Source: Escherichia coli (lineage in GTDB: Bacteria > Pseudomonadota > Gammaproteobacteria > Enterobacterales > Enterobacteriaceae). From it: a DNA stretch of 64,000 nucleotides. How positions within the stretch are numbered: the stretch's first letter is position 1; each line of letters starts with the position of its first letter. This document shows, in pieces, positions 12,786-55,729 of this stretch. The translations under genes and the position numbers were made by a program. Location: assembly GCF_003018255.1 (NCBI RefSeq), contig NZ_CP027440.1; one strand, 5' to 3'. The notes under the pieces were generated by a model. The model had not been told where the DNA came from and searched no databases. It saw only the letters and a program-made list of their open reading frames with translations.

Positions 12786-13520
12786 TCAGTCGCGCACTTT
12801 GTCCGCTTTCTCCCGAGCTTCCCGCTCGAGAGAGAAAATAATCCGTTGTAATTGCCGCTCCACCGTCGGGCTGACGTTAAGAAAACGGAAGCTCAGACGG
12901 GGAGTGGTGATGGTTTCATTCCTGCCATCAATCACTTTGCGCTCGCTGATGGAGATTAACTGGGCGTCAAAGTGAAAAACACCCCATTGCCCCATGTTGA
13001 CTTCAATCTGAGCGAAGCGCATGCCTTCGTGCAATCCGGCAGGCTTTGTTGTTTCCAGTAATGCGCCCATGCCGCCTAACGACAAATCATACAGGCGGAA
13101 ACGTAACGTACTGTTATCCGCCAGTTTGGTCTGGCAAAAATATGGCGGATGGAGTGGGGCGGTGATGCGGAAATATCGGCGTCGTTGTACAAACCATAAG
13201 GTGGGAGGCGGTACGGTAATAAATGCCGGAAGCTGCAAGTATTCACTCTGCTGTAGTTGTTCAACAGTAAACTCGACTTTCGCACCCTGAGTTTCGGCGG
13301 TAATGGTAATGTGCTGCGCCTTTAGCACGGCGATGTTGTCTTCGGCCCGGCTGCCGAAATCCAGCACCAGTTTATCCGGAGTTATTGCCAGTATTTTGCT
13401 GATCAGCTGCCCGCCATTCCAGCTAATACGCAAAGGAATTGCGGCTTTGTGCAAATCGCGTAACACGCCCAGGACGGCTAACGGATTTTGTTTCAGGAAC
13501 TGCTCATGGTAATGACTCAC
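12786..13520 (-). CDS. ycgR: YcgR, c-di-GMP binding PilZ flagellar brake
   Basis: A 244-aa ORF with the PilZ motifs RRRYFR and DLSLGG. Confidence 0.95.
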   Translation of the reverse strand: MSHYHEQFLKQNPLAVLGVLRDLHKAAIPLRISWNGGQLISKILAITPDKLVLDFGSRAEDNIAVLKAQHITITAETQGAKVEFTVEQLQQSEYLQLPAFITVPPPTLWFVQRRRYFRITAPLHPPYFCQTKLADNSTLRFRLYDLSLGGMGALLETTKPAGLHEGMRFAQIEVNMGQWGVFHFDAQLISISERKVIDGRNETITTPRLSFRFLNVSPTVERQLQRIIFSLEREAREKADKVRD

Positions 13521-13720
13521 GCGGAAAAACTCCTGACTGACAAACTGTCTTAGGTTTATCGGTCACAGTTAACAAAACTTAATACAAATGCGTGAATGTT
13601 TTTTACATGTCGTTCTTAAATCAGCCGACATACGCCCAGCATCGATCCCGCCCTTGCCTATACTTAGAGCGTTGACGTAAGCATTTCTTGCGTCCGATTC
13701 ATCGAAACGAGGGCCTGAAC

Positions 13721-13975
13721 ATGGGAATTATTGCCTGGATTATTTTTGGCCTGATAGCCGGCATAATCGCCAAGCTAATCATGCCGGGACGTGATGGTGG
13801 TGGATTTTTCCTGACCTGTATTCTCGGGATAGTCGGTGCGGTGGTCGGCGGCTGGCTGGCGACCATGTTTGGCATTGGCGGCTCCATCAGTGGTTTTAAT
13901 TTGCACAGCTTCCTGGTGGCGGTGGTGGGCGCTATCCTGGTGCTGGGCGTATTCCGCCTTCTGCGAAGAGAATAA
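13721..13975 (+). CDS. ymgE: YmgE, small GlsB/YeaQ/YmgE-family membrane protein
   Basis: The start is at ATG 13721 (MGIIAWIIFG), giving 84 aa. It is a Gly-rich two/three-TM protein. Confidence 0.9.
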   Translation: MGIIAWIIFGLIAGIIAKLIMPGRDGGGFFLTCILGIVGAVVGGWLATMFGIGGSISGFNLHSFLVAVVGAILVLGVFRLLRRE

Positions 13976-13987
13976 GATTTTCATAAG

Positions 13988-14020
13988 GCGGATAGCGATA
14001 CATATGCCGCTATCCGCTTT
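13988..14020 (+). terminator. Terminator hairpin after ymgE, at the left edge of the island
   Basis: Perfect 10-bp stem gcggatagcg / cgctatccgc with a 10-nt loop, followed by ttt. It lies between the convergent stops of ymgE and the receptor gene. Confidence 0.7.
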
Positions 14021-14024
14021 CACA

Positions 14025-15995
14025 TCAGAACGTATACTCGATACCTGCCCAGAAATTGCGACCTTCTTCAATAAACCCTTCACTGTAGGCATATTTGGTA
14101 TCAAACAGGTTATTGACCGACGCATTGACGCTGAAGCCATGACCTAAGGTGTAATCGGCTCGAATGTGAGTCACCGCAAAACCGGCGGCTTTTTGTGAAC
14201 CGTCACTGTTGCTGTAGCTGGAGGAACGCGCCTCTTCCGACAGCGTTACGCTTAACGGCTCCCACGGTTTGAGAGTCATCCATGCGGTCATTGTCTGCGT
14301 TGGCAGATCGGTTATCTTGCCGATGTCTTTGCGTTTGGCATCAGCGTGGATCAGGGCGTAGCTCAATCCTACATCCAGTATATTGCTGATTTTCCCCTTA
14401 ATACCGGCATCCAGACCGCTGTAATCCACCGTGCCGCTGTTCTGATTTTGAATGGTATCGGCATCGATATTGTGCGAGAGGATGGCATCACTCACCCGGT
14501 TATAGTAAACGCTGACCTCAAACCCCCAGTCGTGCGTGAAGGCACCATTCCAGGTTAAATCCACCCCGCGCGCGCGTTCCGGCTTGAGCTGCGGGTTAAC
14601 AATCGCTATCTGGTTATACGCAGGTTTGGACGTGGTATAGCGTTCTTTCAGCGTCGGAAAGCGTGTGCGGTCATAGTACGAAAGCGCCAGCGTGTCTTCA
14701 TTGGCAAAGTGGTATTTCCCCATCACCTGCCAGTTAAAAGCTGACTGATTGTTGTCGTCATAATGGGTGATACTGCCATCTTTCTCATGTTTTTTCGCTT
14801 CTACGCTATCGCGCCAGTCATAGCTGATTCCAGCCACGACATCGACATTATCGGCAGCAGCCCATTGATATTCACTGGCGAGCGACCAGGTACGATCTTC
14901 ATAGCGATCGTAAGCGGCGTGCGGCGCACCTTTTTCCCGGTGTACGTCATCTTTCCAGTTAACGGCAAACGACAGCAGATCGTTTTCACGCACATCGGCT
15001 GCCAGTTGTAACCCGGCACCGTCGCTGTAATCGGAATAATGGCTGTAGCTGCCTTTTTTATTTTTCAAATCAGCCAGCGAGTTGTACATCATCAGCGTAT
15101 TTTCAAAGGTATCGCGATACAGCCGACTTTTCAGGGTAAAACGATCGTTTAGTTGGGTCGTTCCCTGATAATAAAAACTTTCTTTGTCATACTCTGGCCA
15201 CTGCCAGTAGCGTGATTTTTGACCACTATTTCCACTGTATGGCGGATTATCTTTTTCACCATCCTGCTTAATGTAAGTCAATGTGTATTCATCGTTTTCG
15301 CGTGGTGTAAAACCGAGCTTCACAATGCCGCGTTTATCATCAGCCGATGAATTAATCATCTTGCCGTGTTTGCCTGCAATATCATTATTTACACCATGCG
15401 GCAGGCCGAGAAAATCCTGCTTTAGCTGGCTACCGCTGACTTGCAAATACCCCAGATCGCTGCTGGCGGCAAATGAAGCATGCATATCGTAGGCATTGTC
15501 CTGGCTACGGCTCCATCCCTGGCGATATCCCAGATTTGCTTCCAGAGGTTTTGTTGGCTTCTGGGTGGTGATATTAATGGCTCCGCCCATCTGATTAGGC
15601 CCCTGAAGCAGCGACGAATACCCTTTGGAAACTTCAACTGCCCCCAAATTGTTGGTCAGAATCCGCGCCAGATCGAGGTTGCCGTCATAGGGAACATAAA
15701 TGGGCACACCGTCGAAATAGACTGGCACCTGACGACTATCAAAGCCACGAACTTTGACCTGTTCTTCGTTGCGGCTACCTGACTTTTGCAGCACCACGCC
15801 GGGGACGACACTTAATGCCTGAGCGACATTCTGTTTATCCAGGGCCTTCATGGTGGGGTGATCGAGAACGGTGGTCGTCGTCGATGATACCGGACTGGAC
15901 CATACGGTCAGCGTGTCACTCTCCTGAGCCGCTAAGGCCTGCTGGGTAAAGGCAAGTGATAATGCTGTGCAGAGATAACGTTTTTTGAGTCTCAT
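14025..15995 (-). CDS. TonB-dependent outer-membrane receptor (chelate/siderophore class), substrate unknown
   Basis: The start is at ATG 15995 (signal peptide MRLKKRYLCTALSLAFTQQALA). It has the TonB-box-like segment DTLTVWS, a plug segment and a long beta-barrel ending in the aromatic terminus GIEYTF. There is no N-terminal signalling extension. Confidence 0.88.
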   Translation of the reverse strand: MRLKKRYLCTALSLAFTQQALAAQESDTLTVWSSPVSSTTTTVLDHPTMKALDKQNVAQALSVVPGVVLQKSGSRNEEQVKVRGFDSRQVPVYFDGVPIYVPYDGNLDLARILTNNLGAVEVSKGYSSLLQGPNQMGGAINITTQKPTKPLEANLGYRQGWSRSQDNAYDMHASFAASSDLGYLQVSGSQLKQDFLGLPHGVNNDIAGKHGKMINSSADDKRGIVKLGFTPRENDEYTLTYIKQDGEKDNPPYSGNSGQKSRYWQWPEYDKESFYYQGTTQLNDRFTLKSRLYRDTFENTLMMYNSLADLKNKKGSYSHYSDYSDGAGLQLAADVRENDLLSFAVNWKDDVHREKGAPHAAYDRYEDRTWSLASEYQWAAADNVDVVAGISYDWRDSVEAKKHEKDGSITHYDDNNQSAFNWQVMGKYHFANEDTLALSYYDRTRFPTLKERYTTSKPAYNQIAIVNPQLKPERARGVDLTWNGAFTHDWGFEVSVYYNRVSDAILSHNIDADTIQNQNSGTVDYSGLDAGIKGKISNILDVGLSYALIHADAKRKDIGKITDLPTQTMTAWMTLKPWEPLSVTLSEEARSSSYSNSDGSQKAAGFAVTHIRADYTLGHGFSVNASVNNLFDTKYAYSEGFIEEGRNFWAGIEYTF

Positions 15996-16020
15996 AGAAT
16001 AAATTCCGTTTAACAAAGAA

Positions 16021-16875
16021 TTAAATAGAGGCTGCGGGTTGCAGACTGACTTTAATGTCAGCTGGTGTCGCGTAATAAGGCGCGGAGGTAATAAAAAGGC
16101 GAATGCCGCAGTCGAGGTAATTTTTGAGTGTTGTCAGATTAATTCCGCCGGTCAGAGCCAGCGTGCAGTGAGGAGCCAGCGACGGTGCTATTTGCGCAAT
16201 TTCAGTTGCCTGTTGCGGATTAAATTTGTCGAGCTGAAGTACGTCTGGTTGCGCGCGTAACGCGGCGATTGCCTCTTTCGGCGTGTCGGCTTCAACAACT
16301 ATTTTCTTCTCGGGTGCGTGGCGGCGTAACTGATTGATTGCGCCTGACCAGTCCTGATTGTCATGAAGAAAATGACGGTGGTTGGCAAACAATAATATGG
16401 TTTCCGCACATCCGGCACGATGAATCAGTCCTCCGGCAGCCAGAATTGCCTGCGAGGCCAGTAAGCGGGTGCCCGGAATTGCTTTTCGGGTGCAGGCGAT
16501 ATTGCCATCAGGGTAACGTTCACGAAGTAACGCCAGCATTTGAGCGAGATAATCAGAAACACCGCAACTCCACTCCAGCACATTCTGGACTGCCTTCCAT
16601 CCCTGATGAAGTGCTGCGGCATTACCCTGCGCACGGATTAGCCGCTGACCCGCGTTCGCTTGTGAACCGTCGCTGACTGCGTCATCAATAGTTAATCCCA
16701 GCGTAGTTAACATCTTACACGCGACAGAAATTCCGCTGACGCAGCCGCCCTGACGGTGAAAAAACTCTATATAGCCATGCTGGTGTCCAATATTTAATGC
16801 TCGCGTGGTCAGGTCACCGCCCTGGATATCTTCCAGAAGTAACGCATCGATTTGTGCCTGAGAAAGGAAAATCAT
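16021..16875 (-). CDS. modD: ModD-family protein (quinolinate/nicotinate phosphoribosyltransferase fold), function unknown
   Basis: A 284-aa ORF with the type II PRTase core TRKAIPGTRLLASQAILAAGGLIHRAGCAETILLFANH. The ATG overlaps the upstream stop (ATGA at 16872-16875). Confidence 0.8.
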   Translation of the reverse strand: MIFLSQAQIDALLLEDIQGGDLTTRALNIGHQHGYIEFFHRQGGCVSGISVACKMLTTLGLTIDDAVSDGSQANAGQRLIRAQGNAAALHQGWKAVQNVLEWSCGVSDYLAQMLALLRERYPDGNIACTRKAIPGTRLLASQAILAAGGLIHRAGCAETILLFANHRHFLHDNQDWSGAINQLRRHAPEKKIVVEADTPKEAIAALRAQPDVLQLDKFNPQQATEIAQIAPSLAPHCTLALTGGINLTTLKNYLDCGIRLFITSAPYYATPADIKVSLQPAASI

Positions 16876-17684
16876 CGCAGTGCCTCTTGCGGTACGCTAT
16901 CCCACCAGATGAGCGCCCAGTCGCGGCTGGCAGGGGCGAGGGCACGAGCATCTTGTTGTTGATACCAGCGATATAACCGCTCACGCTCATCGTCGTTAAG
17001 CGCGCCCAGACTCCAGCTGACGTTCTGCTCAAAACGTTCCCAGGTGCTGTTATCCTGTTGGCAATTTTGTCCGCGGATAAAATCAACGTGAGCATAAATT
17101 CCCATCTGATACAGGACGTTGAGCGCAAAGATATAGTTGGGTAATTCGACCACTTCCCGACCAGCCGCCCGCTGAATGGCTGGAGAGACGAACGAGGTGC
17201 TGACCAGATGAGTCGTATAGACGCGAAGCCGTGCCTGATTATTCAGTTTGCTCATTGCCTGGCGCATATCAGCCACCAGAGTGGAGCGGGAAGCCACGGC
17301 AATATCGCAGCGTGGCAGGTCACTCCAGTCCTCTTCCCAGGCGCGCTGGATCCAGTGGACATTGTCTGCCTTTAGCGCGGCGGCGCGACGGGCGGCAACG
17401 TTCAGCATCCCCTGACTGTAATCAACGCCATAAATCGTCGTGAGTTTGTCCGCCAGCGCCAGCGATACGGTACCCGGTCCGCAGCCCATATCGAATAAGG
17501 TTTGCGCGCCTTGCAGGTCAATTTTTGAGGTCAGTTGTTGCAGGTAGCTGTCCGTCGGCGAGGCGCAATTTTCCGCCATTTTTTCCGCCCGTTGATCCCA
17601 GTGATCCGGCGTTTTTTCTGTGCGATGGGCCAGCCTGAGTTGCTGAAGGTAAAGGTCTGCAAAATCAATATCGTCAATGAGCAT
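16872..17684 (-). CDS. Class I SAM-dependent methyltransferase, substrate unknown
   Basis: A 270-aa ORF with SAM motif I LFDMGCGPGTVSLALA, followed by the acidic motif II IYGVDYS. Confidence 0.8.
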   Translation of the reverse strand: MLIDDIDFADLYLQQLRLAHRTEKTPDHWDQRAEKMAENCASPTDSYLQQLTSKIDLQGAQTLFDMGCGPGTVSLALADKLTTIYGVDYSQGMLNVAARRAAALKADNVHWIQRAWEEDWSDLPRCDIAVASRSTLVADMRQAMSKLNNQARLRVYTTHLVSTSFVSPAIQRAAGREVVELPNYIFALNVLYQMGIYAHVDFIRGQNCQQDNSTWERFEQNVSWSLGALNDDERERLYRWYQQQDARALAPASRDWALIWWDSVPQEALR

Positions 17685-17693
17685 GATTTTTCC

Positions 17694-18452
17694 TTAGTGC
17701 TTAATTGCAGAGAGGTGATGGTGAATCTGGTCGGCAGAAACCCGGTACAGGGCAGCCAGTTTTTTCGTTGTTAACTGTTCGGTCGGTAAGCCTTGTGTTA
17801 CTCGTCCATCTGGCTCTACCTGGATAATGCTGTCGGCAATGGCGTTTGCATGGAGCGGATGATGAGTCGACATTAACATTGTCATGCCGTTATTTTTGAG
17901 CTGCGCCAGCGTGTCCAGAAGTTGGATCTGATGACCGAAATCGAGGCTAGAGGCAGGCTCATCCAGTAATAACAAGCGCGGTTGCTGGACGAGTGCACGG
18001 GCGATTAAAGCCAGCTGACGTTCACCGCCGCTAAGCGTATTCCAGCGTCGTGTCGCCAGATGCAAAATGCCCAGCTTTTCCAGTTGCTCCGTTGCTTTCA
18101 GGCGTTCTTGCTTACCGGGAACGGAAAAAGCGCCTATGGTGGGGGCCTGGCCCATCAACACCATATCCAGCACACTAAAAGCAAAAATGCCGTCGTGCGC
18201 CTGCGGCACCCAGGCAATAGCCTGCGCGCGCTGGCGATGGCTGAGTGTCTGCACAGGGAGGCTATCCAGTAAGATCTCGCCTTTTAATAACGGTATAACG
18301 CCAAGAATGGAGCGCATGAGTGTGGTTTTGCCGCAACCATTGGCTCCTAACAGACAACAAATTGTTCCTTGCGACAGGGTGAAGGACACGTCGCGTAGCA
18401 CCGGATGGCGGGAGTAACCCAGAGACGCATGACGGACGGCAAGCAAAGTCAC
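17694..18452 (-). CDS. ABC transporter ATPase (FepC/FecE/BtuD type)
   Basis: It has Walker A GANGCGKTT, signature LSGGERQ and Walker B LLLLDEP. I chose the GTG start at 18452 because GGAGG precedes it and it overlaps the permease stop (GTGA). The longer track ORF up to 18590 would run 140 nt into the permease gene. Confidence 0.85.
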   Translation of the reverse strand: MTLLAVRHASLGYSRHPVLRDVSFTLSQGTICCLLGANGCGKTTLMRSILGVIPLLKGEILLDSLPVQTLSHRQRAQAIAWVPQAHDGIFAFSVLDMVLMGQAPTIGAFSVPGKQERLKATEQLEKLGILHLATRRWNTLSGGERQLALIARALVQQPRLLLLDEPASSLDFGHQIQLLDTLAQLKNNGMTMLMSTHHPLHANAIADSIIQVEPDGRVTQGLPTEQLTTKKLAALYRVSADQIHHHLSAIKH

Positions 18453-19429
18453 TGGCGACCTCCGCGTAACAACAAAAACAGGAAAAACGGTGCGCCAACA
18501 AAAGCGGTCAGAATGCCAAGTGGGATTTCTGTTGTTCCAATGCTGCGTGCCAGCGTATCGGTAAGCAGGAGCAGAATCGCGCCAGTACACATTGCCATGG
18601 GCAACAGCTGCTGATGGTTATGACCGGTCAACAAGCGGGCAATGTGCGGAACGACCAGGCCGACCCAACCAATTATGCCCGCTATTGCTACCGTGCTGGC
18701 GGTGATGAGTGTGGCACAGACAATCAATCCAAAGCGCAGACGTGTCACGTTCAGTCCCAGCGAACGGGCTTCGTCGTCGGAAAGCGTGAGTAAATTCATG
18801 CGCCAGCGGAGAAAAAACAGGGGCAAGGAGCCTATGAGAATGATCGGTGCAGCATAGCAGAGATCGCGTAAGGTCACGGTGGACAGCCCCCCCAGCAACC
18901 AGAAGGTAATTGACGGTAACTGGGTATAAGGATCGGCCAGCGTTTTTATTAGCGATATCCCCGCTCCGCACAACGTTCCTAACGCAATGCCTACCAGCAC
19001 CAGGGTTAAGATCGGATCGTGGCGGGTCACCCGACGCGTAATCAACCAGACGCCCGCGACCACCATCAGCCCGCCGCAAAATGCGTACAGCTGGATGTAA
19101 ACAATGGATAATCCCCACAGGATTGCCGCGCAGGCACCAAGTCCGGCACCGGCGGAGACGCCTAAAATATCCGGTGACACTAAGGGATTACGGAACATTC
19201 CCTGATAGGTGGTTCCGGCCCCTGCCAGCGCCGCGCCCAGAAACAGCGCAGCAAGAATACGCGGCACGCGGATTTGCCAGAAGACAATTTGTTCCTGCAC
19301 AGTAACATTTTCTTGACGAAGAATGAGCGCCAGCAGTTGCTGCATATCGAGATGATAAGCCCCACTTACGGCGGCAAAAGTGATACTGATAGCTGCCAGC
19401 AGCAAAATACATCCGTTTACGGTTCTCAT
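18449..19429 (-). CDS. FecCD/BtuC-family ABC permease
   Basis: A 326-aa polytopic ORF with typical FecCD-family organisation. The ATG shares one nt with the upstream TAA (TAATG). Confidence 0.87.
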   Translation of the reverse strand: MRTVNGCILLLAAISITFAAVSGAYHLDMQQLLALILRQENVTVQEQIVFWQIRVPRILAALFLGAALAGAGTTYQGMFRNPLVSPDILGVSAGAGLGACAAILWGLSIVYIQLYAFCGGLMVVAGVWLITRRVTRHDPILTLVLVGIALGTLCGAGISLIKTLADPYTQLPSITFWLLGGLSTVTLRDLCYAAPIILIGSLPLFFLRWRMNLLTLSDDEARSLGLNVTRLRFGLIVCATLITASTVAIAGIIGWVGLVVPHIARLLTGHNHQQLLPMAMCTGAILLLLTDTLARSIGTTEIPLGILTAFVGAPFFLFLLLRGGRQ

Positions 19430-20451
19430 TAGCTCGCCACCAATTTTTGATAGTCGGCGTCACTTAATGGGCAATGCCAGAACAGTTGGGCGTAATGCTG
19501 CATGTCACTTTTAAACTGGCGATTGATGGCGGGATCCAGCCAGGCGTGAAGTCTGCGTAATCCCAGAAGACGGTTGATTCCCGGCGGGGCATCCAGCCAG
19601 CCAAAGGGCAGGCCACTTAAAAATAAGATGCGTTGTTCCGCAACCGCTTTCACGCCCTGCCAGAGAGGATCACGACGAATAAAATCTGCAGTAACGGCCT
19701 CCTGAACCAGAATAATATCCGGCTGCCAGCGCAGGAGATTTTCCATGGAAACCTGTGTCAGACCGTGGCGATCGGCTATTTGCGCGACGTTGTGCAAACC
19801 TAATAATTCCGCCGCCTCGGTATGCAACGAACCCTGTAAGCCCGTTTCCAGCCCTCGAGGACCGCGCGCAGCATAAAAGCTGAGATTAGCGGCGGGTGAG
19901 GTGGCGAATGCCTGAGCTTCACCAACGAAGCGGCTGGCGAGATTGGCTTGTTCTGCGGCGCGGTGCTCTTCGCCTAACGTTTTGCCAAGCGTTGTTAACT
20001 GTTCTGCTGATTGTTCCAGTTTCCCGTTAAGCAATAACCAGGGTATTTGTGTCTGTTCGCTAACCTGCCGTGCCTGGGAGATCCAGGTTTCATCCGTATT
20101 GCCGCAATCAACGACCAAATCGGGATGTAACGCCATAAGCCCTTCCAGCGAGAGTGTACTGGCGCGCCCGGCGAGTCGTCCCAGCCTGGGGAACTGGCGA
20201 ATGTGCTCTGGCAATGGAATTAATGCCTGACGGGCAAAATCAAAAGAGGAAAAACCGACCATTTTTTCTGGCGCGACAGCCAGCAATAGTAAATCGGCGG
20301 GCGCGCCTGCGCTGACGATGCGTGTAATGTTTTGGGCTTCGGGAAGCGTCAGTGAGGCCCAGAATTTGACTGATTGTGCAAAGGACGGCAGATGATGCAG
20401 GAACAATGTCGACGCAAGAATCTGTGTAAACCTCCGTCTGGTTAGTGACAT
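19429..20451 (-). CDS. Periplasmic substrate-binding protein (class III, FhuD/BtuF-like) with a twin-arginine type signal
   Basis: The preferred start is ATG 20451 (MSLTRRRFTQILASTLFLHHLPSFA-QS), preceded by AGGA. The track ORF start at 20493 adds 14 residues ahead of the signal n-region. Confidence 0.8.
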   Translation of the reverse strand: MSLTRRRFTQILASTLFLHHLPSFAQSVKFWASLTLPEAQNITRIVSAGAPADLLLLAVAPEKMVGFSSFDFARQALIPLPEHIRQFPRLGRLAGRASTLSLEGLMALHPDLVVDCGNTDETWISQARQVSEQTQIPWLLLNGKLEQSAEQLTTLGKTLGEEHRAAEQANLASRFVGEAQAFATSPAANLSFYAARGPRGLETGLQGSLHTEAAELLGLHNVAQIADRHGLTQVSMENLLRWQPDIILVQEAVTADFIRRDPLWQGVKAVAEQRILFLSGLPFGWLDAPPGINRLLGLRRLHAWLDPAINRQFKSDMQHYAQLFWHCPLSDADYQKLVAS

Positions 20452-20628
20452 AAGTAATATCCTGATAATTAAAACCGCTATATACTTACACATATAGCGA
20501 AAAAGATCATGTTTGATGTCAAAATTTGTCTAAAGAGACGGAATGATTTGCTTGTTGCTTAAATAACACTTTGTTCCACAAGAAAATTGTCAGGGAGAAT
20601 GGGGAGTGGGGGAAAATATAAATAGAGG

Positions 20629-20647
20629 TGTAATGATTAACAAGTTG
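20629..20647 (-). promoter_or_regulatory. Candidate sigma70 promoter with an overlapping Fur-like box for the island operon
   Basis: The minus strand reads TTGTTA-17 nt-TATATT. The overlapping caacttgttaatcattaca matches the 19-bp Fur consensus GATAATGATAATCATTATC at 12/19 positions. The match is weak and this is a prediction only. Confidence 0.3.
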
Positions 20648-20729
20648 ATAAAATAAAATTAAAATCTTCTCTAATAAAAGAAAATAAAGGCATAGACCGT
20701 AGAAAGAGTGGTATTTGGTATTTCGTGGT

Positions 20730-20773
20730 GAAGAAAGAGCAATGCCAATTTTATGCACGTAATGGCATTGCTC
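20730..20773 (-). terminator. Rho-independent terminator after treA
   Basis: Perfect 11-bp stem gagcaatgcca / tggcattgctc with a 15-nt loop, followed on the minus strand by tctttctt. Confidence 0.7.
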
Positions 20774-20787
20774 GATATACAGTAAAG

Positions 20788-22485
20788 TTAAGGCGTAGGT
20801 TCCGCCTCATTTTGTTTTACCGGCTGTGTTGTTGATTCACTGAGTGGACGCGTCGCCGGAACATTGTCGCACGGTTGCTCTTTCGGGCAGATCAAATCCA
20901 GCATTTTCAGCGTCACGCCATTGGTCCAGCCAAAGCCATCCTGTAATGGATATTCGCCACCGCCGCCCCCTGTTCCGGTGGTGCTGACATCATATTTTTC
21001 CACCAGCTTTTTCTCCCGGTCATAGGTGTGCTGAACATTGGTCAGGAAGTGCCAGCTAATGTCCATCGCCACCTCTTTTTGCCCGTAGTTTTGTAATCCT
21101 TCTGTCGCGACCCACTGCAACGGTGCCCAGCCGTTTGGCGCATCCCATTGTTGCCCACTTTTCACCGACGTGGTGTTCAGGCCGCCTGGTTGCAGCAGAT
21201 GTGTTTTCGTCGCCGTCGCCATTTTGCTGGCGCGATCTTTCGCTGCCGCATTGACGTACAGCGGGAACAGGGCGGCCGCGGTTAACTGATTGCGCACTTT
21301 ATGACTTTTCAGGTCGTAATCGGCATACCAGCCTTGTTGATCGTTCCACAGGTATTTTTCGATCCCTTTTTGACGGGCATTCGCCAGCGTTTCGTACTGG
21401 TTTGCCATCGCGTTATCTCCGGCAGCTTTGCTGGCGCGGGCGAGGATTTTTTCCATTTTAAACATCAGGCTGTTCAGATCGACCGGTACGATGCTGGTGG
21501 TGCGTAAGGTATTTAACTGCTGCGGATTGTCCATCCAGCGCGAGCTGAAATCCCAGCCAGACGCAGCGGCAGAGCGCAGGTCGCGGTAAATTTCAGTGGC
21601 AGGTCGATTCGGATTGCTTTTGGCGGTGGCAATATCTTCCACCCATGACTCTGGTCGTGGCGTATCGCGATCGTCCCAGTAGCGGTTGAGAAGGGTACCA
21701 TCCTGAAGTTTGACAACGCGTTTTTCCTGTTGTCCGGCTTGCAGGTTTTCAACACCGTCCATCCAGTAAGCATATTCTTTTTGCATTTGCGGCAGGTATT
21801 GCTTCAACGCGGCATCGCCTTCATGCTGCGCCAGTAACTCTACCATCAGGGCAAAGAATGGCGGTTGTGAGCGGCTTAAATAGTAACTGCGGTTGCCGTT
21901 GGGAATATGCCCGTAAGTGTCTATTTCATGAGCAAAATTGGCCACCATATCCGCGACTTTATCCCAGTGACCACTTTCGGCAAGCCCTAACATGGTGAAG
22001 TAACTGTCCCAGTAATATACCTCGCGAAAACGTCCGCCCGGCACAACATAAGGTTCCGGCAGCGGTAACAGAGAATCCCATTTTTCGGTATTTTCGGTAG
22101 AACGCGTTAATACCGGCCAAAGTCCGTCAATATGTTCGCGTAGTGATTGCCCCTCTGGCGGAACATATTTCTCGCCCTCTTTCGGCAGGGTGAAATTGAC
22201 GTTAACGAAATGGCGTAGATCAAATCCGCTCTGGTTTTGCTGCATCCGATAATCAGCAAGGATCATCAGCGGATCGCTGTTCGGCACGGCATCGGCAAAG
22301 GTTTTTTGGTCCGGAAAAAGTTTGGCGTTTTGCACATCATTAAACAGCGGCCCTAATAAAATATCAGGCGGCTGTGGCGTTACCGGTGTTTCTTCTGCCT
22401 GCACCGATAGCGCAGCGAAACACAAAAAGATGCAGGCTGGAATTAACGCCATTTTTAGCGGGCGAGAAGCTGCGGGGGATTTCAT
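20788..22485 (-). CDS. treA: TreA, periplasmic trehalase (GH37)
   Basis: The start is at ATG 22485 ([30 protein letters not shown], a signal peptide) after AAGGAG, giving 565 aa. Recognised as TreA. Confidence 0.96.
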
Positions 22486-22769
22486 CAATCATTCTCCTTT
22501 GGCGAAACCGAATAAAACGGTATTCAAGTATCAGAAAACCTTAGTTCAGGATCGCACTAGCTGCATGATCGAAATCTCATTCTGCGAACGGTCAGGCATT
22601 TTAGAAAAGGGAATTAAAGGGATAAATAACGTCGAAATAGAGTGATCAAATAACGTCTGTTTGTTAGCCAGCCAGCGGCGTTGGGTTCGCGATTAGCGCC
22701 GAAAAAATCATCATGATTTGGTAAAAAATATAACAGGTAGTTAAAAATCATCCGTGCAGAGTAAATAGC

Positions 22770-22796
22770 CGGATGGCATCAGAACGATGCCATCCG
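22770..22796 (-). terminator. Terminator hairpin after dhaM
   Basis: Perfect 11-bp stem cggatggcatc-agaac-gatgccatccg, 10 nt after the dhaM stop. Confidence 0.6.
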
Positions 22797-22805
22797 AACG
22801 GTGGT

Positions 22806-24224
22806 TTAACCCTGACGGCTGAAACGTTGCGTTTTAACGTCCAGCGTTAGCGTTTCTTCTGGTTGTATCGCATACAGTTTCTCACCCTGCTGGCAAATCC
22901 AGCCAATCCCCAGTTCACGGGCGATCAGGGCGCTGTGGGATAGCGGACTTCCGGCGCTAAGGCAGATACCTTTTACAACCGCCGGATCCAGTTGCAGTAT
23001 TGTGGAGGGATAGATGTTCTCCGCCAGTAGAATAGTTGGCGAGTTAAACTGCGGGAGTTCTTCTTTCGTTTGGGTCAGGTGGACCAGGGTGCGATGCAGA
23101 AGATCGTCCACATCAATATAGCGAGCCTGTAGATATTCATCATCCAGTTGCTGGTATTGCTGGCTAAGTTCTTTAAGAACTTGCTGCCAGGCATATTCTG
23201 CCGTGCAATGTTCATGCTGAAGGAGTTCGCTTGCCGCCGCCAGCAGTTCCGGATCATCTAACAGTGTATGGTGACCAGAAAAGATTGCGGCAATATCGTC
23301 AAGCCCGCTGGCTTCTGCTTTCGCTGTTAACGTCATCAGATCTAATAACGTGAAGTCAATGGCCTGGCGTAATCGTTCTTGTTCTTCATCCACGGTCAGG
23401 GTTGATTTTGCCTGTACCGTACATAAAACCGGTTGATAATAAAAGGCTTTACCCGAAACAGGCGGAACGGGACGCAGAATAGGTGGAGCAACTTCCTCCG
23501 TTTCACCAAAGTTATCTTCAGCCAGCTGACGGAAAGCGATCAGTGCCTCTTCAGCTTCTGGCCCTTTCGCAATCAGGCGCAGCGTATCGTTATAGCGAAC
23601 TTGTAGTAACGCAATCTGGTTAATACTCTCCGGTGTGACGCATTTGCCGTTTTTCTCCAGCAACATATCGGCATTAAATGTCGATAAGGTATAAACCAGC
23701 CGGGAGGCCGGACGTACATGCAGGCCGTTACGGTTTTTTATGACCACCGCCAGAGAACGGGCTTCTTCATCGTACGAAGGACATGTGTCAGAGATTTCAG
23801 TGTTGGAGGAGGGTAAACCCAGTTGTTCACGTTTGGCTTCCAGCGCATGCATGGCGTCAAAGATCACTTTGTCGATCTCCGCCCCCGAGGCCGCGCTAAC
23901 CGTTGCTGCCAGTGTACCTTCGACCAACGGCGCAGCACACAAACGTACTTTTGCGGCGATCTCGGGAGCCAGCAATTCCAGCGCAGTTTCAGCACTCAAT
24001 AATGCGCTTCCTATATCCATCATGACCAGCACATGGTCGGTATCGGCAACAGATTCGATGGCCTCCATCACTTTGACGGCATCGGTACCAATGGGATTTT
24101 GTGGATCGTCAATTCCCGCGGCAATGGCGATTTTACAATTATCACTCATTAACATCTGACGGGCTAATTCACCGACGCCTTCTCCCAGTCGGCTGCTATG
24201 TGAAACTATGACCAGGTTTACCAT
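22806..24224 (-). CDS. dhaM: DhaM, PTS-dependent dihydroxyacetone kinase phosphotransferase subunit
   Basis: The start is at ATG 24224 (MVNLVIVSHS), giving 472 aa. It has EIIA-like, HPr-like and EI-N-like segments. Confidence 0.95.
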   Translation of the reverse strand: MVNLVIVSHSSRLGEGVGELARQMLMSDNCKIAIAAGIDDPQNPIGTDAVKVMEAIESVADTDHVLVMMDIGSALLSAETALELLAPEIAAKVRLCAAPLVEGTLAATVSAASGAEIDKVIFDAMHALEAKREQLGLPSSNTEISDTCPSYDEEARSLAVVIKNRNGLHVRPASRLVYTLSTFNADMLLEKNGKCVTPESINQIALLQVRYNDTLRLIAKGPEAEEALIAFRQLAEDNFGETEEVAPPILRPVPPVSGKAFYYQPVLCTVQAKSTLTVDEEQERLRQAIDFTLLDLMTLTAKAEASGLDDIAAIFSGHHTLLDDPELLAAASELLQHEHCTAEYAWQQVLKELSQQYQQLDDEYLQARYIDVDDLLHRTLVHLTQTKEELPQFNSPTILLAENIYPSTILQLDPAVVKGICLSAGSPLSHSALIARELGIGWICQQGEKLYAIQPEETLTLDVKTQRFSRQG

Positions 24225-28350: not shown

Positions 28351-28433
28351 TAAAAGGCACATTGTTAATATTGCCAGGAGTCTGATTATGATTTTCGATA
28401 ACTCAGAATTGAAAGAAGCCGCGTAGCAGGCGT

Positions 28434-35491: not shown

Positions 35492-36748
35492 ATGACCCTT
35501 TTAGCACTCGGTATCAACCATAAAACGGCACCTGTATCGCTGCGAGAACGTGTATCGTTTTCGCCGGATAAGCTCGATCAGGCGCTTGACAGCCTGCTTG
35601 CGCAGCCGATGGTGCAGGGCGGCGTGGTGCTGTCGACGTGCAATCGCACGGAACTTTATCTTAGCGTTGAAGAGCAGGATAACCTGCAAGAGGCGTTAAT
35701 CCGCTGGCTTTGCGATTATCACAATCTTAATGAAGAAGACCTGCGTAAAAGCCTCTACTGGCATCAGGATAACGACGCGGTTAGCCATTTAATGCGTGTT
35801 GCCAGCGGCCTGGATTCACTGGTTTTGGGGGAGCCGCAGATCCTCGGTCAGGTTAAAAAAGCGTTTGCCGATTCGCAAAAAGGCCATATGAAGGCCAGCG
35901 AACTGGAACGCATGTTTCAGAAATCTTTCTCTGTAGCGAAACGTGTTCGCACTGAAACAGATATCGGTGCCAGCGCTGTTTCTGTCGCTTTTGCGGCTTG
36001 TACGCTGGCGCGGCAGATCTTTGAATCGCTCTCTACGGTGACGGTACTGCTGGTGGGTGCGGGCGAAACCATCGAGCTGGTGGCGCGTCATCTGCGCGAA
36101 CACAAAGTACAGAAGATGATTATCGCCAACCGCACTCGCGAACGTGCCCAAATTCTGGCAGATGAAGTCGGCGCGGAAGTTATTGCCCTGAGTGATATCG
36201 ACGAACGTCTGCGCGAAGCCGATATCATCATCAGTTCCACCGCCAGCCCGTTACCGATTATCGGGAAAGGCATGGTGGAGCGCGCATTAAAAAGCCGTCG
36301 CAACCAACCAATGCTGTTGGTGGATATTGCCGTTCCGCGCGATGTTGAGCCGGAAGTTGGCAAACTGGCGAATGCTTATCTTTATAGCGTGGACGATCTG
36401 CAAAGCATCATTTCGCACAACCTGGCGCAGCGTAAAGCCGCAGCGGTTGAGGCGGAAACTATTGTCGCTCAGGAAACCAGCGAATTTATGGCGTGGCTGC
36501 GTGCACAAAGCGCCAGCGAAACCATTCGCGAGTATCGCAGCCAGGCAGAGCACGTTCGCGATGAGTTAACTGCCAAAGCGTTAGCGGCCCTTGAGCAGGG
36601 CGGTGACGCTCAAGCCATTATGCAGGATCTGGCATGGAAACTGACTAACCGCCTGATCCATGCGCCAACGAAATCACTTCAACAGGCCGCCCGTGACGGG
36701 GATAACGAACGCCTGAATATTCTGCGCGACGGCCTCGGGCTGGAGTAG
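35492..36748 (+). CDS. hemA: HemA, glutamyl-tRNA reductase
   Basis: The start is at ATG 35492 ([14 protein letters not shown]), giving 418 aa. The track ORF is extended 66 codons upstream. Confidence 0.96.
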
Positions 36749-44493: not shown

Positions 44494-45888
44494 TTGAGCC
44501 GTTTCGTTCCTCGCATTATTCCGTTTTATTTACTCTTGCTGGCGGCAGGCGGTACAGCTAACGCACAATCTACCTTCGAGCAAAAAGCGGCAAATCCCTT
44601 TGATAATAACAATGATGGTCTGCCGGATTTAGGCATGGCACCTGAAAATCATGATGGGGAAAAACACTTTGCTGAAATTGTGAAAGATTTCGGCGAAACC
44701 AGTATGAATGATAACGGGCTGGATACTGGCGAGCAGGCAAAAGCTTTCGCATTGGGAAAAGTCCGCGACGCGTTTAGTCAACAGGTTAATCAGCACGTAG
44801 AGTCGTGGCTATCAGCGTGGGGAAATGCCAGTGTTGACGTCAAAGTGGATAACGAAGGACATTTCACCGGCAGTCGTGGAAGCTGGTTTGTGCCGTTACA
44901 AGATAATGATCGTTATCTCACCTGGAGCCAGCTTGGTCTTACTCAGCAGGATGATGGGCTGGTGAGCAATGTGGGCGTTGGGCAACGCTGGGCGCGCGGC
45001 AGCTGGCTGGTGGGTTATAACACTTTTTATGACAACTTGCTGGACGAAAATCTTCAGCGAGCGGGCTTCGGTGCCGAAGCGTGGGGCGAATATTTGCGAC
45101 TATCGGCAAACTTTTATCAGCCGTTTGCTGCATGGCATGAACAGACAGCCACGCAGGAACAACGGATGGCGCGCGGGTACGACCTGACAGCCCGGATGCG
45201 CATGCCGTTTTATCAACACCTCAATACCAGTGTCAGCGTAGAACAGTATTTTGGTGATCGTGTTGATTTGTTTAACTCTGGTACGGGTTATCACAATCCC
45301 GTCGCGTTGAGTCTGGGATTAAATTATACCCCAGTGCCATTAGTCACTGTGACGGCCCAGCATAAACAGGGTGAAAGTGGCGAAAATCAAAATAACCTCG
45401 GGCTGAATCTTAATTACCGCTTTGGTGTACCGCTCAAAAAACAACTTTCTGCGGGCGAGGTTGCCGAAAGTCAGTCGTTACGTGGTAGTCGCTATGACAA
45501 TCCGCAGCGAAATAATCTACCGACTCTTGAGTACCGACAGCGAAAAACGTTAACGGTGTTTCTGGCGACACCGCCGTGGGATCTAAAACCTGGCGAAACA
45601 GTGCCGCTGAAATTACAAATCCGCAGTCGTTACGGTATTCGGCAACTGATTTGGCAGGGCGATACGCAGATATTAAGTTTGACGCCGGGCGCACAAGCCA
45701 ACAGTGAGGAGGGCTGGACGCTGATCATGCCTGACTGGCAAAACGGGGAAGGCGCAAGCAATCACTGGCGATTGTCAGTGGTGGTGGAAGATAACCAGGG
45801 GCAGCGTGTCTCCTCCAATGAGATCACGCTAACGCTTGTCGAACCGTTCGACGCATTGTCAAACGACGAACTGCGCTGGGAACCGTAA
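44494..45888 (+). CDS. ychO: YchO, invasin/intimin-family outer-membrane protein
   Basis: A TTG start at 44494 gives the signal peptide MSRFVPRIIPFYLLLLAAGGTANA and 464 aa. An ATG at 44458 is the alternative. Confidence 0.85.
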   Translation: MSRFVPRIIPFYLLLLAAGGTANAQSTFEQKAANPFDNNNDGLPDLGMAPENHDGEKHFAEIVKDFGETSMNDNGLDTGEQAKAFALGKVRDAFSQQVNQHVESWLSAWGNASVDVKVDNEGHFTGSRGSWFVPLQDNDRYLTWSQLGLTQQDDGLVSNVGVGQRWARGSWLVGYNTFYDNLLDENLQRAGFGAEAWGEYLRLSANFYQPFAAWHEQTATQEQRMARGYDLTARMRMPFYQHLNTSVSVEQYFGDRVDLFNSGTGYHNPVALSLGLNYTPVPLVTVTAQHKQGESGENQNNLGLNLNYRFGVPLKKQLSAGEVAESQSLRGSRYDNPQRNNLPTLEYRQRKTLTVFLATPPWDLKPGETVPLKLQIRSRYGIRQLIWQGDTQILSLTPGAQANSEEGWTLIMPDWQNGEGASNHWRLSVVVEDNQGQRVSSNEITLTLVEPFDALSNDELRWEP

Positions 45889-48451: not shown

Positions 48452-48593
48452 TATTTGCCGTGTGGTTAGTCGCTTTACATCGGTAAGGGTAGGGATTTTA
48501 CAGCACCGTGAAAAATCTCATAATTTTTATGAAATCACTGTACTCACTATGGATAATGATAAATATCAATGATAGATAAAGTTATCTTATCGT

Positions 48594-54194: not shown

Positions 54195-55729
54195 AAATTC
54201 GTTCACAAGTCGGCATGGTGCTGAATCTCGATAAGTGCATCGGCTGCCACACCTGTTCAGTGACCTGTAAAAACGTCTGGACCAGCCGTGAAGGCGTGGA
54301 ATACGCGTGGTTCAACAACGTGGAAACCAAGCCGGGCCAGGGCTTCCCGACTGACTGGGAAAACCAGGAAAAATACAAAGGCGGCTGGATCCGTAAAATC
54401 AACGGCAAACTGCAGCCGCGCATGGGTAACCGTGCCATGCTGCTGGGTAAAATCTTCGCTAACCCGCATCTGCCGGGGATCGACGATTATTACGAGCCGT
54501 TCGATTTTGATTATCAGAACCTGCATACCGCGCCGGAAGGCAGCAAATCACAGCCGATTGCCCGTCCGCGTTCACTGATTACCGGCGAACGGATGGCGAA
54601 AATCGAAAAAGGGCCGAACTGGGAAGATGACCTGGGCGGTGAGTTTGACAAGCTGGCGAAAGACAAGAACTTCGACAACATCCAGAAGGCGATGTATAGC
54701 CAGTTCGAAAACACCTTCATGATGTATTTGCCGCGCCTGTGCGAACACTGTCTGAACCCGGCATGTGTGGCGACCTGCCCGAGCGGTGCGATTTACAAGC
54801 GTGAAGAAGATGGCATCGTCCTGATCGACCAGGATAAATGCCGTGGCTGGCGTATGTGCATCACCGGATGCCCGTACAAAAAAATCTACTTCAACTGGAA
54901 GAGCGGTAAGTCTGAGAAGTGCATCTTCTGCTATCCGCGTATTGAAGCCGGCCAGCCGACAATATGTTCAGAAACCTGTGTCGGTCGTATCCGTTATCTT
55001 GGCGTGCTGCTGTACGATGCCGACGCGATTGAACGTGCGGCAAGTACCGAGAACGAGAAAGATCTCTACCAGCGTCAGCTGGATGTGTTCCTCGATCCGA
55101 ACGATCCGAAAGTCATCGAGCAGGCGATTAAAGACGGTATTCCGCTGAGCGTTATTGAGGCTGCACAGCAGTCGCCAGTTTATAAAATGGCGATGGAATG
55201 GAAACTGGCGCTGCCGCTGCATCCGGAATATCGCACACTGCCGATGGTCTGGTACGTGCCGCCTCTGTCGCCGATTCAGTCTGCGGCAGACGCGGGTGAA
55301 CTGGGCAGCAACGGCATTCTGCCAGACGTCGAAAGCCTGCGTATTCCGGTACAGTATCTGGCGAATCTGCTGACCGCCGGTGATACCAAACCGGTACTGC
55401 GCGCGCTGAAACGTATGCTGGCGATGCGTCATTACAAACGTGCTGAAACCGTTGACGGTAAAGTCGATACCCGTGCGCTGGAAGAGGTCGGTCTGACCGA
55501 AGCCCAGGCACAGGAGATGTATCGTTATCTGGCTATTGCCAACTACGAAGATCGCTTTGTGGTGCCGAGCAGTCATCGTGAACTGGCGCGGGAAGCCTTC
55601 CCGGAGAAAAATGGCTGCGGCTTTACCTTTGGTGATGGCTGCCACGGTTCAGATACCAAATTCAATCTGTTTAACAGCCGTCGTATCGATGCCATCGACG
55701 TGACCAGTAAAACGGAGCCGCACCCATGA
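54191..55729 (+). CDS. narH: NarH, nitrate reductase A beta subunit (Fe-S)
   Basis: A 512-aa ORF with ferredoxin-type Cys clusters (CIGCHTCSVTC, CEHCLNPAC). It overlaps narG by 4 nt. Confidence 0.98.
   Translation: MKIRSQVGMVLNLDKCIGCHTCSVTCKNVWTSREGVEYAWFNNVETKPGQGFPTDWENQEKYKGGWIRKINGKLQPRMGNRAMLLGKIFANPHLPGIDDYYEPFDFDYQNLHTAPEGSKSQPIARPRSLITGERMAKIEKGPNWEDDLGGEFDKLAKDKNFDNIQKAMYSQFENTFMMYLPRLCEHCLNPACVATCPSGAIYKREEDGIVLIDQDKCRGWRMCITGCPYKKIYFNWKSGKSEKCIFCYPRIEAGQPTICSETCVGRIRYLGVLLYDADAIERAASTENEKDLYQRQLDVFLDPNDPKVIEQAIKDGIPLSVIEAAQQSPVYKMAMEWKLALPLHPEYRTLPMVWYVPPLSPIQSAADAGELGSNGILPDVESLRIPVQYLANLLTAGDTKPVLRALKRMLAMRHYKRAETVDGKVDTRALEEVGLTEAQAQEMYRYLAIANYEDRFVVPSSHRELAREAFPEKNGCGFTFGDGCHGSDTKFNLFNSRRIDAIDVTSKTEPHP

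Follow-up and report, generated by a model that had tools for sequence, protein, structure and literature searches.

A six-gene import operon between ymgE and treA

The stretch of Escherichia coli DNA analysed here is 64,000 nucleotides long (contig NZ_CP027440.1 of assembly GCF_003018255.1; referred to below as the window) and carries, between ymgE and treA, a minus-strand operon of six genes for which a role in molybdenum or tungsten acquisition is proposed. In the direction of transcription the operon encodes: a class III periplasmic binding protein (PBP; 19429-20451, PF01497); a FecCD-type ATP-binding cassette (ABC) permease of type II (18449-19429, PF01032 at 299 bits); an ABC ATPase ('fepC'; 17694-18452, PF00005); a class I S-adenosylmethionine (SAM)-dependent methyltransferase ('yc73'; 16872-17684, with Pfam methyltransferase domains); ModD, a type II phosphoribosyltransferase-like protein of the quinolinate phosphoribosyltransferase (QPRTase) fold (16021-16875, TIGR01334); and a TonB-dependent outer-membrane receptor ('prrA', Z1961/ECs1693; 14025-15995, Plug and TonB_dep_Rec barrel). 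The genes are tightly packed, the junctions from first to last being a 1-nucleotide overlap, a 4-nucleotide overlap, a 9-nucleotide gap, a 4-nucleotide overlap (the methyltransferase stop over the ModD start) and a 25-nucleotide gap.

These genes, their coordinates and their tight junctions had been described from the letters of the DNA alone (the sequence-only reading), and are borne out both by the list of open reading frames (ORFs), which has all six on the minus strand, and by RefSeq, whose annotation of carrier genomes has these six genes with identical starts. The six family assignments likewise hold in hidden Markov model searches (PF01497, PF01032, PF00005, methyltransferase, TIGR01334 and Plug/barrel models), and the view that the operon specifies a complete import route from the outer membrane to the cytoplasm, with two enzymes embedded in it, is supported.

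A conserved, predicted ModE-type operator upstream of the first gene

Upstream of the first gene lies a palindrome (20476-20499; CGCTATATG-TGTAAG-TATATAGCG) that ends 24 nucleotides before the PBP start codon and matches the E. coli ModE consensus ATCGnTATATA-[N6]-TATATAnCGAT (PMC545781). Scored as matches at the 16 specified core positions of CGnTATATA-N6-TATATAnCG, the palindrome reaches 15 of 16; the genuine K-12 modA operator (CGTTATATT-GTCGCC-TACATAACG, 22-45 nucleotides upstream of modA) reaches 14 of 16. The pattern TATAT-N7-TAYAT occurs once in the 64-kb window, at 20476-20499, where 0.14 occurrences would be expected by chance. The leader had been described as an AT-rich region bounded by the treA terminator; it is indeed AT-rich (GC about 0.40), but the hairpin upstream of the first gene appears to be a ModE-type operator palindrome and not mere leader structure.

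The conservation of this element was examined in 80 ModD-encoding loci, one genome per species, 56 of them with the first gene present. Of the 80, 52 keep the six genes in their full order; they come from about 15 genera, and their proteins are as little as about 45% identical. A search of the 250 nucleotides upstream of the first gene gives a best score of 13/16 or more in 54 of the 56 loci, usually at -33 to -72; 0.8% of random 253-nucleotide windows from the same loci and 0.2% of shuffled upstream regions score as high. In addition, 31 loci (in Proteus, Morganella, Providencia, Pectobacterium, Serratia and Moellerella), where the gap between ModD and the receptor is long, have a second box before the receptor gene, 35-145 nucleotides upstream of it (257 in one locus). 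Across the whole 20-kb loci, high-scoring boxes are found almost only at these two promoters or before ModA/WtpA-type genes, and the boxes before ModA/WtpA-type genes beside ModD are an internal positive control.

The arrangement of the putative promoter may be that of a repressed gene. A -35-like hexamer, TTGACA (20517-20522, minus strand), lies 17 nucleotides upstream of the operator, and in most genera TTGACA or TTGAT is found exactly 17 nucleotides upstream of the box amid sequence that is otherwise unconserved. This spacing would place the -10 element and the transcription start inside the box. A generic sigma-70 scan missed TTGACA and reported only a weak site about 165 nucleotides upstream of the start codon.

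The same palindrome might be thought to act as RNA immediately ahead of the ribosome-binding site, whether as an attenuator, as a terminator or as a hairpin in the leader, since a terminator scan flags 20500..20475 as a hairpin of 11 pairs followed by a run starting TTTT, and a moderately more stable RNA fold is predicted for the region than for shuffled sequences (z = -2.0). However, what is conserved is the sequence and not the pairing: of 42 distinct sites, only 18 have complementary letters at the one symmetric pair that varies freely (positions 3 and 22), 13 of the non-complementary sites having C.A there, and in Proteus the right arm degenerates while ATAACG is kept. The non-complementary variable pair therefore favours a protein-binding site over an RNA stem. 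Moreover, the motif is the published ModE consensus (PMC545781) and is also found upstream of modA-type genes, and a transcription start inside the palindrome, as TTGACA 17 nucleotides upstream would imply, might leave the full hairpin untranscribed. Given no covariation and a modest fold z-score, we rejected the RNA reading as highly improbable. It is very likely, judging from the motif and its conservation, that the palindrome is a ModE operator and that the operon is under ModE control.

The inner-membrane importer is related to MolBC

Among the solved structures in the PDB, the permease is closest to Haemophilus influenzae MolB (HI1471), with 219 bits, E 9e-64 and 41% identity; FhuB, HmuU and BtuC match it clearly less well. 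For the ATPase, the PDB search puts H. influenzae MolC (HI1470) first among stand-alone ABC ATPases and second among all matches, and the protein is 36% identical to a MolC ortholog. The two proteins are thus homologs of MolB and MolC. The PBP is not a MolA ortholog by PDB scores or by identity, its best relative in the PDB being the uncharacterised 4PAG (94 bits), with MolA at 34 bits over a partial match. Since the PBP is distant and a separate MolB-like lineage exists, the E. coli system is best described, from sequence comparison, as a sister subfamily of MolBC-A and not as a member or ortholog of it.

That separate lineage consists of permeases (P0369, P0395, P0405, P0414, P0432 and P0388-P0389) that are 51-57% identical to H. 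influenzae MolB and occur in Pectobacterium, Symbiopectobacterium, Brenneria and Rhizobium, apart from the six-gene operon that some of these also carry.

The H. influenzae system, MolBC-A, is a type II importer of molybdate and tungstate. In vivo it imports molybdate, which represses molB via an 'unknown factor' (PMC4031551); in strain Rd, molABC (HI1470-HI1472) adjoins modD (HI1473) (PMC3928620). Using MolB residues recovered from a PDB alignment, we reached two Pasteurellaceae mol loci, in both of which the single best ModE-type box in 19 kb (14/16) lies 46-59 nucleotides upstream of molA; neither a receptor nor a methyltransferase gene was seen in these two loci. The two systems are alike in having a class III binding protein, a linked modD, a ModE-type box (upstream of molA in the Pasteurellaceae mol loci) and, for MolBC-A, repression by molybdate, and MolBC is the closest solved relative of the permease and ATPase encoded in the window. 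They differ in that the E. coli operon goes beyond MolBC-A with a dedicated TonB-dependent receptor and with a SAM methyltransferase, and that its ModD gene is co-transcribed.

In the Aggregatibacter/Haemophilus-type mol locus (L084/L085, 10783-11508) molC overlaps a downstream gene for a ModA-like protein (SBP_bac_11). Because of this overlap, the type II importer there would be co-transcribed with a second, type I-style molybdate-binding protein.

The high-affinity molybdate transporter ModABC, which in E. coli is under ModE repression, has the same type of operator, similarly placed just upstream of the first gene, and presumably the same feedback control by molybdate. It differs in being a type I importer whose proteins belong to an unrelated fold class; its binding protein is ModA (SBP_bac_11), and it has neither an outer-membrane receptor nor enzymes. 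With the chelate systems BtuB-BtuFCD, FhuA-FhuDBC, FecA-FecBCDE and ShuA/HmuTUV, on the other hand, the operon has the TonB box, class III PBP, FecCD permease and ABC ATPase in common. Those systems are governed by Fur or by a B12 riboswitch, neither of which was found at the E. coli operon; none of their receptor family models is passed by the E. coli receptor; and they have no counterpart to the two embedded enzymes. The combination of receptor, class III PBP, FecCD permease and ATPase is present here, but it is common to non-iron systems as well and does not discriminate between ligands.

Salvage of a corrinoid or of another cofactor, after the manner of BtuB/BtuFCD, is one such possibility. 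The permease and ATPase do score against BtuC and corrinoid ATPase models, and the top NCBIfam match of the methyltransferase is CpaM, a corrinoid protein-associated methyltransferase, but all of these matches are far below their cutoffs. The permease matches MolB clearly better than BtuC (147 bits), and the receptor scores 70-80 bits against BtuB models whose cutoffs are 600-836; neither a BtuB-family receptor nor a cobalamin riboswitch was found. No known RNA element at all was matched by Rfam in 13000-23000 at E up to 1, the leader included, save a chance small-RNA match in ycgR. A ModE box would also be unexpected for B12 uptake. We therefore regard corrinoid salvage as very unlikely, as compared with the uptake of molybdenum or tungsten.

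The N-terminus of the PBP (20374-20451) has a twin-arginine-like motif, TRRRFTQ, in its signal peptide (MSLTRRRFTQILAS), which suggests export by the Tat and not the Sec route.

ModD and the methyltransferase

ModD has, to our knowledge, been without an assigned function since it was named. The protein encoded in the window belongs to the ModD family, matching TIGR01334 over model positions 1-277 of 277 at 501.4 bits (cutoff 178.85), and its score against the NadC model TIGR00078 (135.7 bits) is under the cutoff of 198.4. In the numbering of the Mycobacterium tuberculosis QPRTase it keeps R139/K140, H161/R162, E201 and D222, which we take to be the side of the site that binds phosphoribosyl pyrophosphate (PRPP) and ribose. 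R105 is replaced by Lys94 and K172 by Phe163, both replacements being invariant in 20 ModD sequences; these two residues are presumably quinolinate contacts. With the NadC model not passed and two quinolinate contacts replaced, we rejected the idea that ModD is a quinolinate phosphoribosyltransferase. A structure search found solved QPRTases only and none of ModD. The methyltransferase is predicted with confidence by AlphaFold (mean predicted local distance difference test, pLDDT, 91.7), and its nearest folds are small-molecule N/O/C-methyltransferases at 10-19% identity; sequence and fold searches alike point to generic small-molecule methyltransferases only, and no specific identity could be sustained.

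Where ModD occurs without the type II importer (in Cedecea, Phytobacter, Orbus, an Alcaligenaceae metagenome-assembled genome (MAG) and Martelella), it adjoins a type I transporter, whose binding protein is ModA-type (TIGR01256, above cutoff) or WtpA-like and is accompanied by ModE-type boxes. ModD stands beside both type II and type I transporters and therefore tracks molybdenum/tungsten transport across two unrelated architectures. Co-transcription of ModD with a molybdenum transporter under a ModE-type site, as proposed here, has a parallel in modDABC of Geobacter sulfurreducens, for which a ModE site has been predicted (PMC545781), and a pattern like modABCD/modDABC is also found in the Cedecea, Phytobacter, Orbus and Alcaligenaceae loci. 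These operons differ from the one in the window in that they encode a type I ModABC transporter and lack the methyltransferase and the TonB-dependent receptor.

The nature of the two enzymes raises the possibility that the operon is controlled by ModE and yet imports neither molybdenum nor tungsten, the cargo being some compound that is needed when molybdoenzymes fail and is metabolised by ModD and the methyltransferase. Both enzymes have folds associated with organic small molecules, the PBP is no close relative of MolA, and bulky organic ligands are usual for type II importers and TonB-dependent receptors. However, repression of an uptake operon by a metal sensor is normally feedback by the imported metal, the nearest importer that has been studied carries molybdate (PMC4031551), and in unrelated lineages ModD lies beside oxyanion transporters of the ModA/WtpA type. 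We consider such a cargo unlikely, and molybdenum or tungsten the better candidate.

Several loci in the comparison set are variants of this gene set. In Edwardsiella (L025, L044, L045 and L053) only the methyltransferase and ModD are kept, and three of these four loci also have an upstream box of the ModE type. Among the neighbours scanned in L025 (9183-14432), next come a PaaA-like ThiF-family enzyme, a 2-oxoglutarate-Fe(II) oxygenase and an EamA exporter, and the cluster looks, from its gene content, like a peptide antibiotic cluster of the pantocin A type. In E. tarda, a protein (P0304) fuses an ABC ATPase domain to the methyltransferase and is perhaps a remnant of a lost importer. In a betaproteobacterial variant from a Casimicrobiaceae MAG (L072, 2290-7960), a ModE-type box lies upstream of ModD, which is followed in turn by two tandem binding proteins, the permease, the ATPase and the methyltransferase; the contig holds no receptor.

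The receptor and the iron-uptake label

A signal peptide, a TonB box (DTLTVWS) and a C-terminal YTF are all present in the receptor, which does not reach the cutoff of any siderophore, heme, B12 or copper receptor model. It scores 127 bits against TIGR01783 (cutoff 223.5) and 126 bits against TIGR01785 (cutoff 317), and is far under the cutoff of all equivalog models; by these family-model scores it does not belong to a characterised siderophore or heme receptor family.

The operon is not new as an entity. It corresponds to O-island 55, or S-loop 83, of O157:H7 (Z1961-Z1966, ECs1693-ECs1699) (PMC1890555), and is the 'prrA-modD-yc73-fepC' cluster of uropathogenic and avian pathogenic E. coli (PMC1890555, PMC12928451), with which it agrees in gene order, gene names and position beside ycgR-ymgE. 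In the Sakai annotation the methyltransferase region is given as two hypothetical ORFs, ECs1695 and ECs1696/Z1963 (PMC1890555, Table 4), and O157:H7 strains of lineage II are reported either to lack the whole region ECs1691-1705 or to have it in divergent form (PMC1890555). The cluster figures in the literature as a possible marker of iron transport, without a substrate or regulator, and a comparative paper of 2026 (PMC12928451), with reference to Ye & Xu 2001, still gives the cluster as "possibly mediating iron uptake". No substrate, regulator or phenotype was found for it in the literature searched, nor was any link to ModE or molybdenum in that search, which lay outside Studholme & Pau 2003 and RegPrecise. 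The earlier remark that no experimental characterisation of this gene set was known thus needs qualifying: the cluster has been named several times over, although the literature searched gives it no substrate, and to that extent the remark was right. What appears to be new, relative to that literature, is the assignment to ModE and molybdenum.

The published label corresponds to a reading in which the operon takes up iron, as a ferric siderophore, heme or another iron chelate, and is induced by iron starvation. It draws on RefSeq and older papers, which label the genes as an iron ABC transporter, fepC and a ferric-type receptor, on the best sub-threshold family matches of the receptor (siderophore and heme receptors), on the classic iron-chelate architecture of TonB-dependent receptor, class III PBP and FecCD permease, and on the induction of Z1966 in minimal medium (PMC4048457). 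However, the label traces to homology-based naming and not to experiments, the receptor passes no receptor-model cutoff, ModD co-occurs elsewhere with ModA/WtpA transporters, and there is no convincing Fur box. At the operon promoter the best Fur match is 13/19, no better than 25 other sites in the window, and scores over the 56 orthologous promoters are only slightly above shuffled controls, none reaching 15/19. With the leader and the orthologous promoters near background in these consensus scans, Fur regulation was rejected. The element that is conserved is the ModE operator, at both promoters where there are two. Iron uptake is accordingly improbable in our estimation, and molybdenum or tungsten remains the preferred ligand class.

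The best Fur-box-like matches in the window (14/19) are at 28378-28402, 36368-36386, 44602-44620, 48552-48570 and 54503-54521, far outside the operon.

A proposed ModE-repressed route for molybdenum or tungsten

Taken together, the operon is probably an ancestral enterobacterial system, repressed by ModE and dependent on TonB, for the acquisition of molybdenum (or tungsten), which has been lost from K-12-like E. coli. The ligand class is indicated by the conserved ModE operator, the relationship to MolBC and the linkage of ModD to ModA/WtpA transporters, and these same features speak against the earlier view that the sequence does not disclose the identity of the ligand. With molybdate in ample supply, ModE-molybdate would bind 20476-20499, cover the -10 element and the start, and block transcription; under molybdenum starvation all six genes would be expressed from one transcript. 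The receptor may then use TonB energy to move a molybdenum or tungsten species across the outer membrane, and the PBP would pass it to the type II importer, whose homology to MolBC is computed and whose cargo is predicted. In the cytoplasm, more speculatively, ModD and the small-molecule methyltransferase could act on the cargo or on an organic carrier, ModD as a PRPP-type transferase with an altered acceptor pocket.

A number of observations weigh against this interpretation. Free molybdate is small enough to pass through porins, and a TonB-dependent receptor for it is unexpected. Simple oxyanion uptake would also leave two enzymes with organic-substrate folds unexplained. The likenesses of the receptor, weak and sub-threshold as they are, are to siderophore, heme and B12 receptors; the PBP is 25% identical to a MolA ortholog over 230 residues, and its closest structure, 4PAG, has no known ligand; and the -10 element implied by the TTGACA spacing is poor. 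Induction of Z1966 in minimal medium would be expected from iron limitation too (PMC4048457). Furthermore, MolA has a low molybdate affinity (PMC3928620 cites about 100 uM), and the true ligand of the reference system is therefore itself debatable. Finally, the model we favour rests on computation.

The enzymes, the receptor and the type II importer together exceed what free molybdate would need, which leaves room for an organic molybdenum/tungsten complex as the actual cargo, and we tentatively raise the possibility that the receptor is the first dedicated TonB-dependent molybdenum/tungsten transporter, with ModD and the methyltransferase modifying the carrier in the cytoplasm and so releasing or recycling the metal. 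The carrier could be a 'molybdophore' (a chelate of the catecholate or pyridine-carboxylate type) or a cofactor-like compound from the gut or host. If so, the pathway would be present in many pathogens (extraintestinal pathogenic E. coli (ExPEC), enterohemorrhagic E. coli (EHEC), Proteus, Morganella and Providencia) and would have been mislabelled as iron uptake since 1998.

In the inflamed gut and in the urinary tract, Enterobacterales respire anaerobically with the help of molybdoenzymes for nitrate, dimethyl sulfoxide/trimethylamine N-oxide and formate, and the metals that they can obtain are restricted by hosts and competitors. Those reviews of molybdenum uptake that were searched describe the inner-membrane ModABC, MolBC and sulfate transporters, and no energised outer-membrane step was found in them. 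If the assignment to molybdenum or tungsten is true, a 25-year-old 'iron uptake' virulence marker of ExPEC and EHEC would be re-assigned, ModD would gain a physiological context that can be tested, and natural molybdenum limitation would appear severe enough to warrant a TonB-powered scavenger in about 15 genera.

Distribution and differential loss in E. coli

At least 80% of the block is present in 2139 of 5426 complete E. coli genomes (39%), the others matching its first 73 nucleotides only, and in the K-12 strain J53 ycgY takes the place of the block between ymgE and treA. The sequence-only reading had regarded the block as accessory, with ycgY alone in K-12, and had noted no integrase, IS element, tRNA or flanking repeat; on both counts our results agree with it. 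Its implication that an island had arrived at this site, however, is contradicted by the presence of a syntenic operon in E. albertii and in other genera and by a 24-nucleotide receptor remnant in K-12. Between treA and ymgE/emtA the operon was also found in E. albertii, Raoultella, Intestinirhabdus, one further Enterobacteriaceae genome and eight Citrobacter loci. The last eight codons and stop of the receptor gene (14025-14048, minus strand) are retained at the same place in K-12 as TCAGAACGTATACTCGACACCTGC, which we read as a deletion scar.

Homology to K-12 stops at 14048 and resumes 40 nucleotides inside treA. The variable segment is consequently 14049-20827, ending inside the 3' end of the receptor gene and inside the last 40 nucleotides of treA, and not at the borders proposed before, although the features named as borders, namely the ymgE-side hairpin, the treA terminator hairpin and the AT-rich leader, are all there. 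No repeats were found at the edges of the block, the GC content of the operon's coding sequence (0.45-0.57) resembles that of its flanks, and none of the marks of a horizontally acquired island (border elements, atypical composition or syntenic absence in relatives) was seen. Horizontal acquisition can thus be set aside on the basis of synteny, the K-12 scar and the lack of border repeats. Because of the conserved synteny, the K-12 receptor remnant, the unremarkable GC content and the lack of border repeats, the locus appears to be ancestral in Enterobacterales and its polymorphism in E. coli to reflect differential loss, in K-12-like lineages, and not gain.

Two hairpins flank the operon. The GC-rich one between the convergent ymgE and receptor genes (13988-14017; GCGGATAGCG, a 10-nucleotide loop and CGCTATCCGC, followed by TTT) is kept in K-12 and is probably a bidirectional terminator. 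The other, with its T-run, is the treA terminator (20737-20773, minus strand; GAGCAATGCCA, a 15-nucleotide loop and TGGCATTGCTC, followed by TTTCTT) and is the upstream limit of the regulatory region of the operon. A 79-residue ORF in the leader (20519-20758) found no support as a gene.

The last 18 residues or so of TreA (window 20788-20840) differ from those of K-12 (…PTVKSATTQPSTKEAQPTP), the rest of the gene being about 98% identical, and the right-hand breakpoint of the polymorphism lies inside the treA coding sequence. In E. albertii (L004, 3167-12904) both ycgY and the six-gene operon are found between treA and ymgE; both were probably present in the ancestor, with one or the other lost in E. 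coli lineages. The operon is also carried by nine E. coli records that are filed as plasmids (H26-H34). They range from 150 kb to 4.9 Mb, two of them being 4.9 Mb, and all are non-mobilizable; given their size and lack of mobilization, plasmid-borne mobility was discarded, and the nine are almost certainly mislabelled chromosomal sequence.

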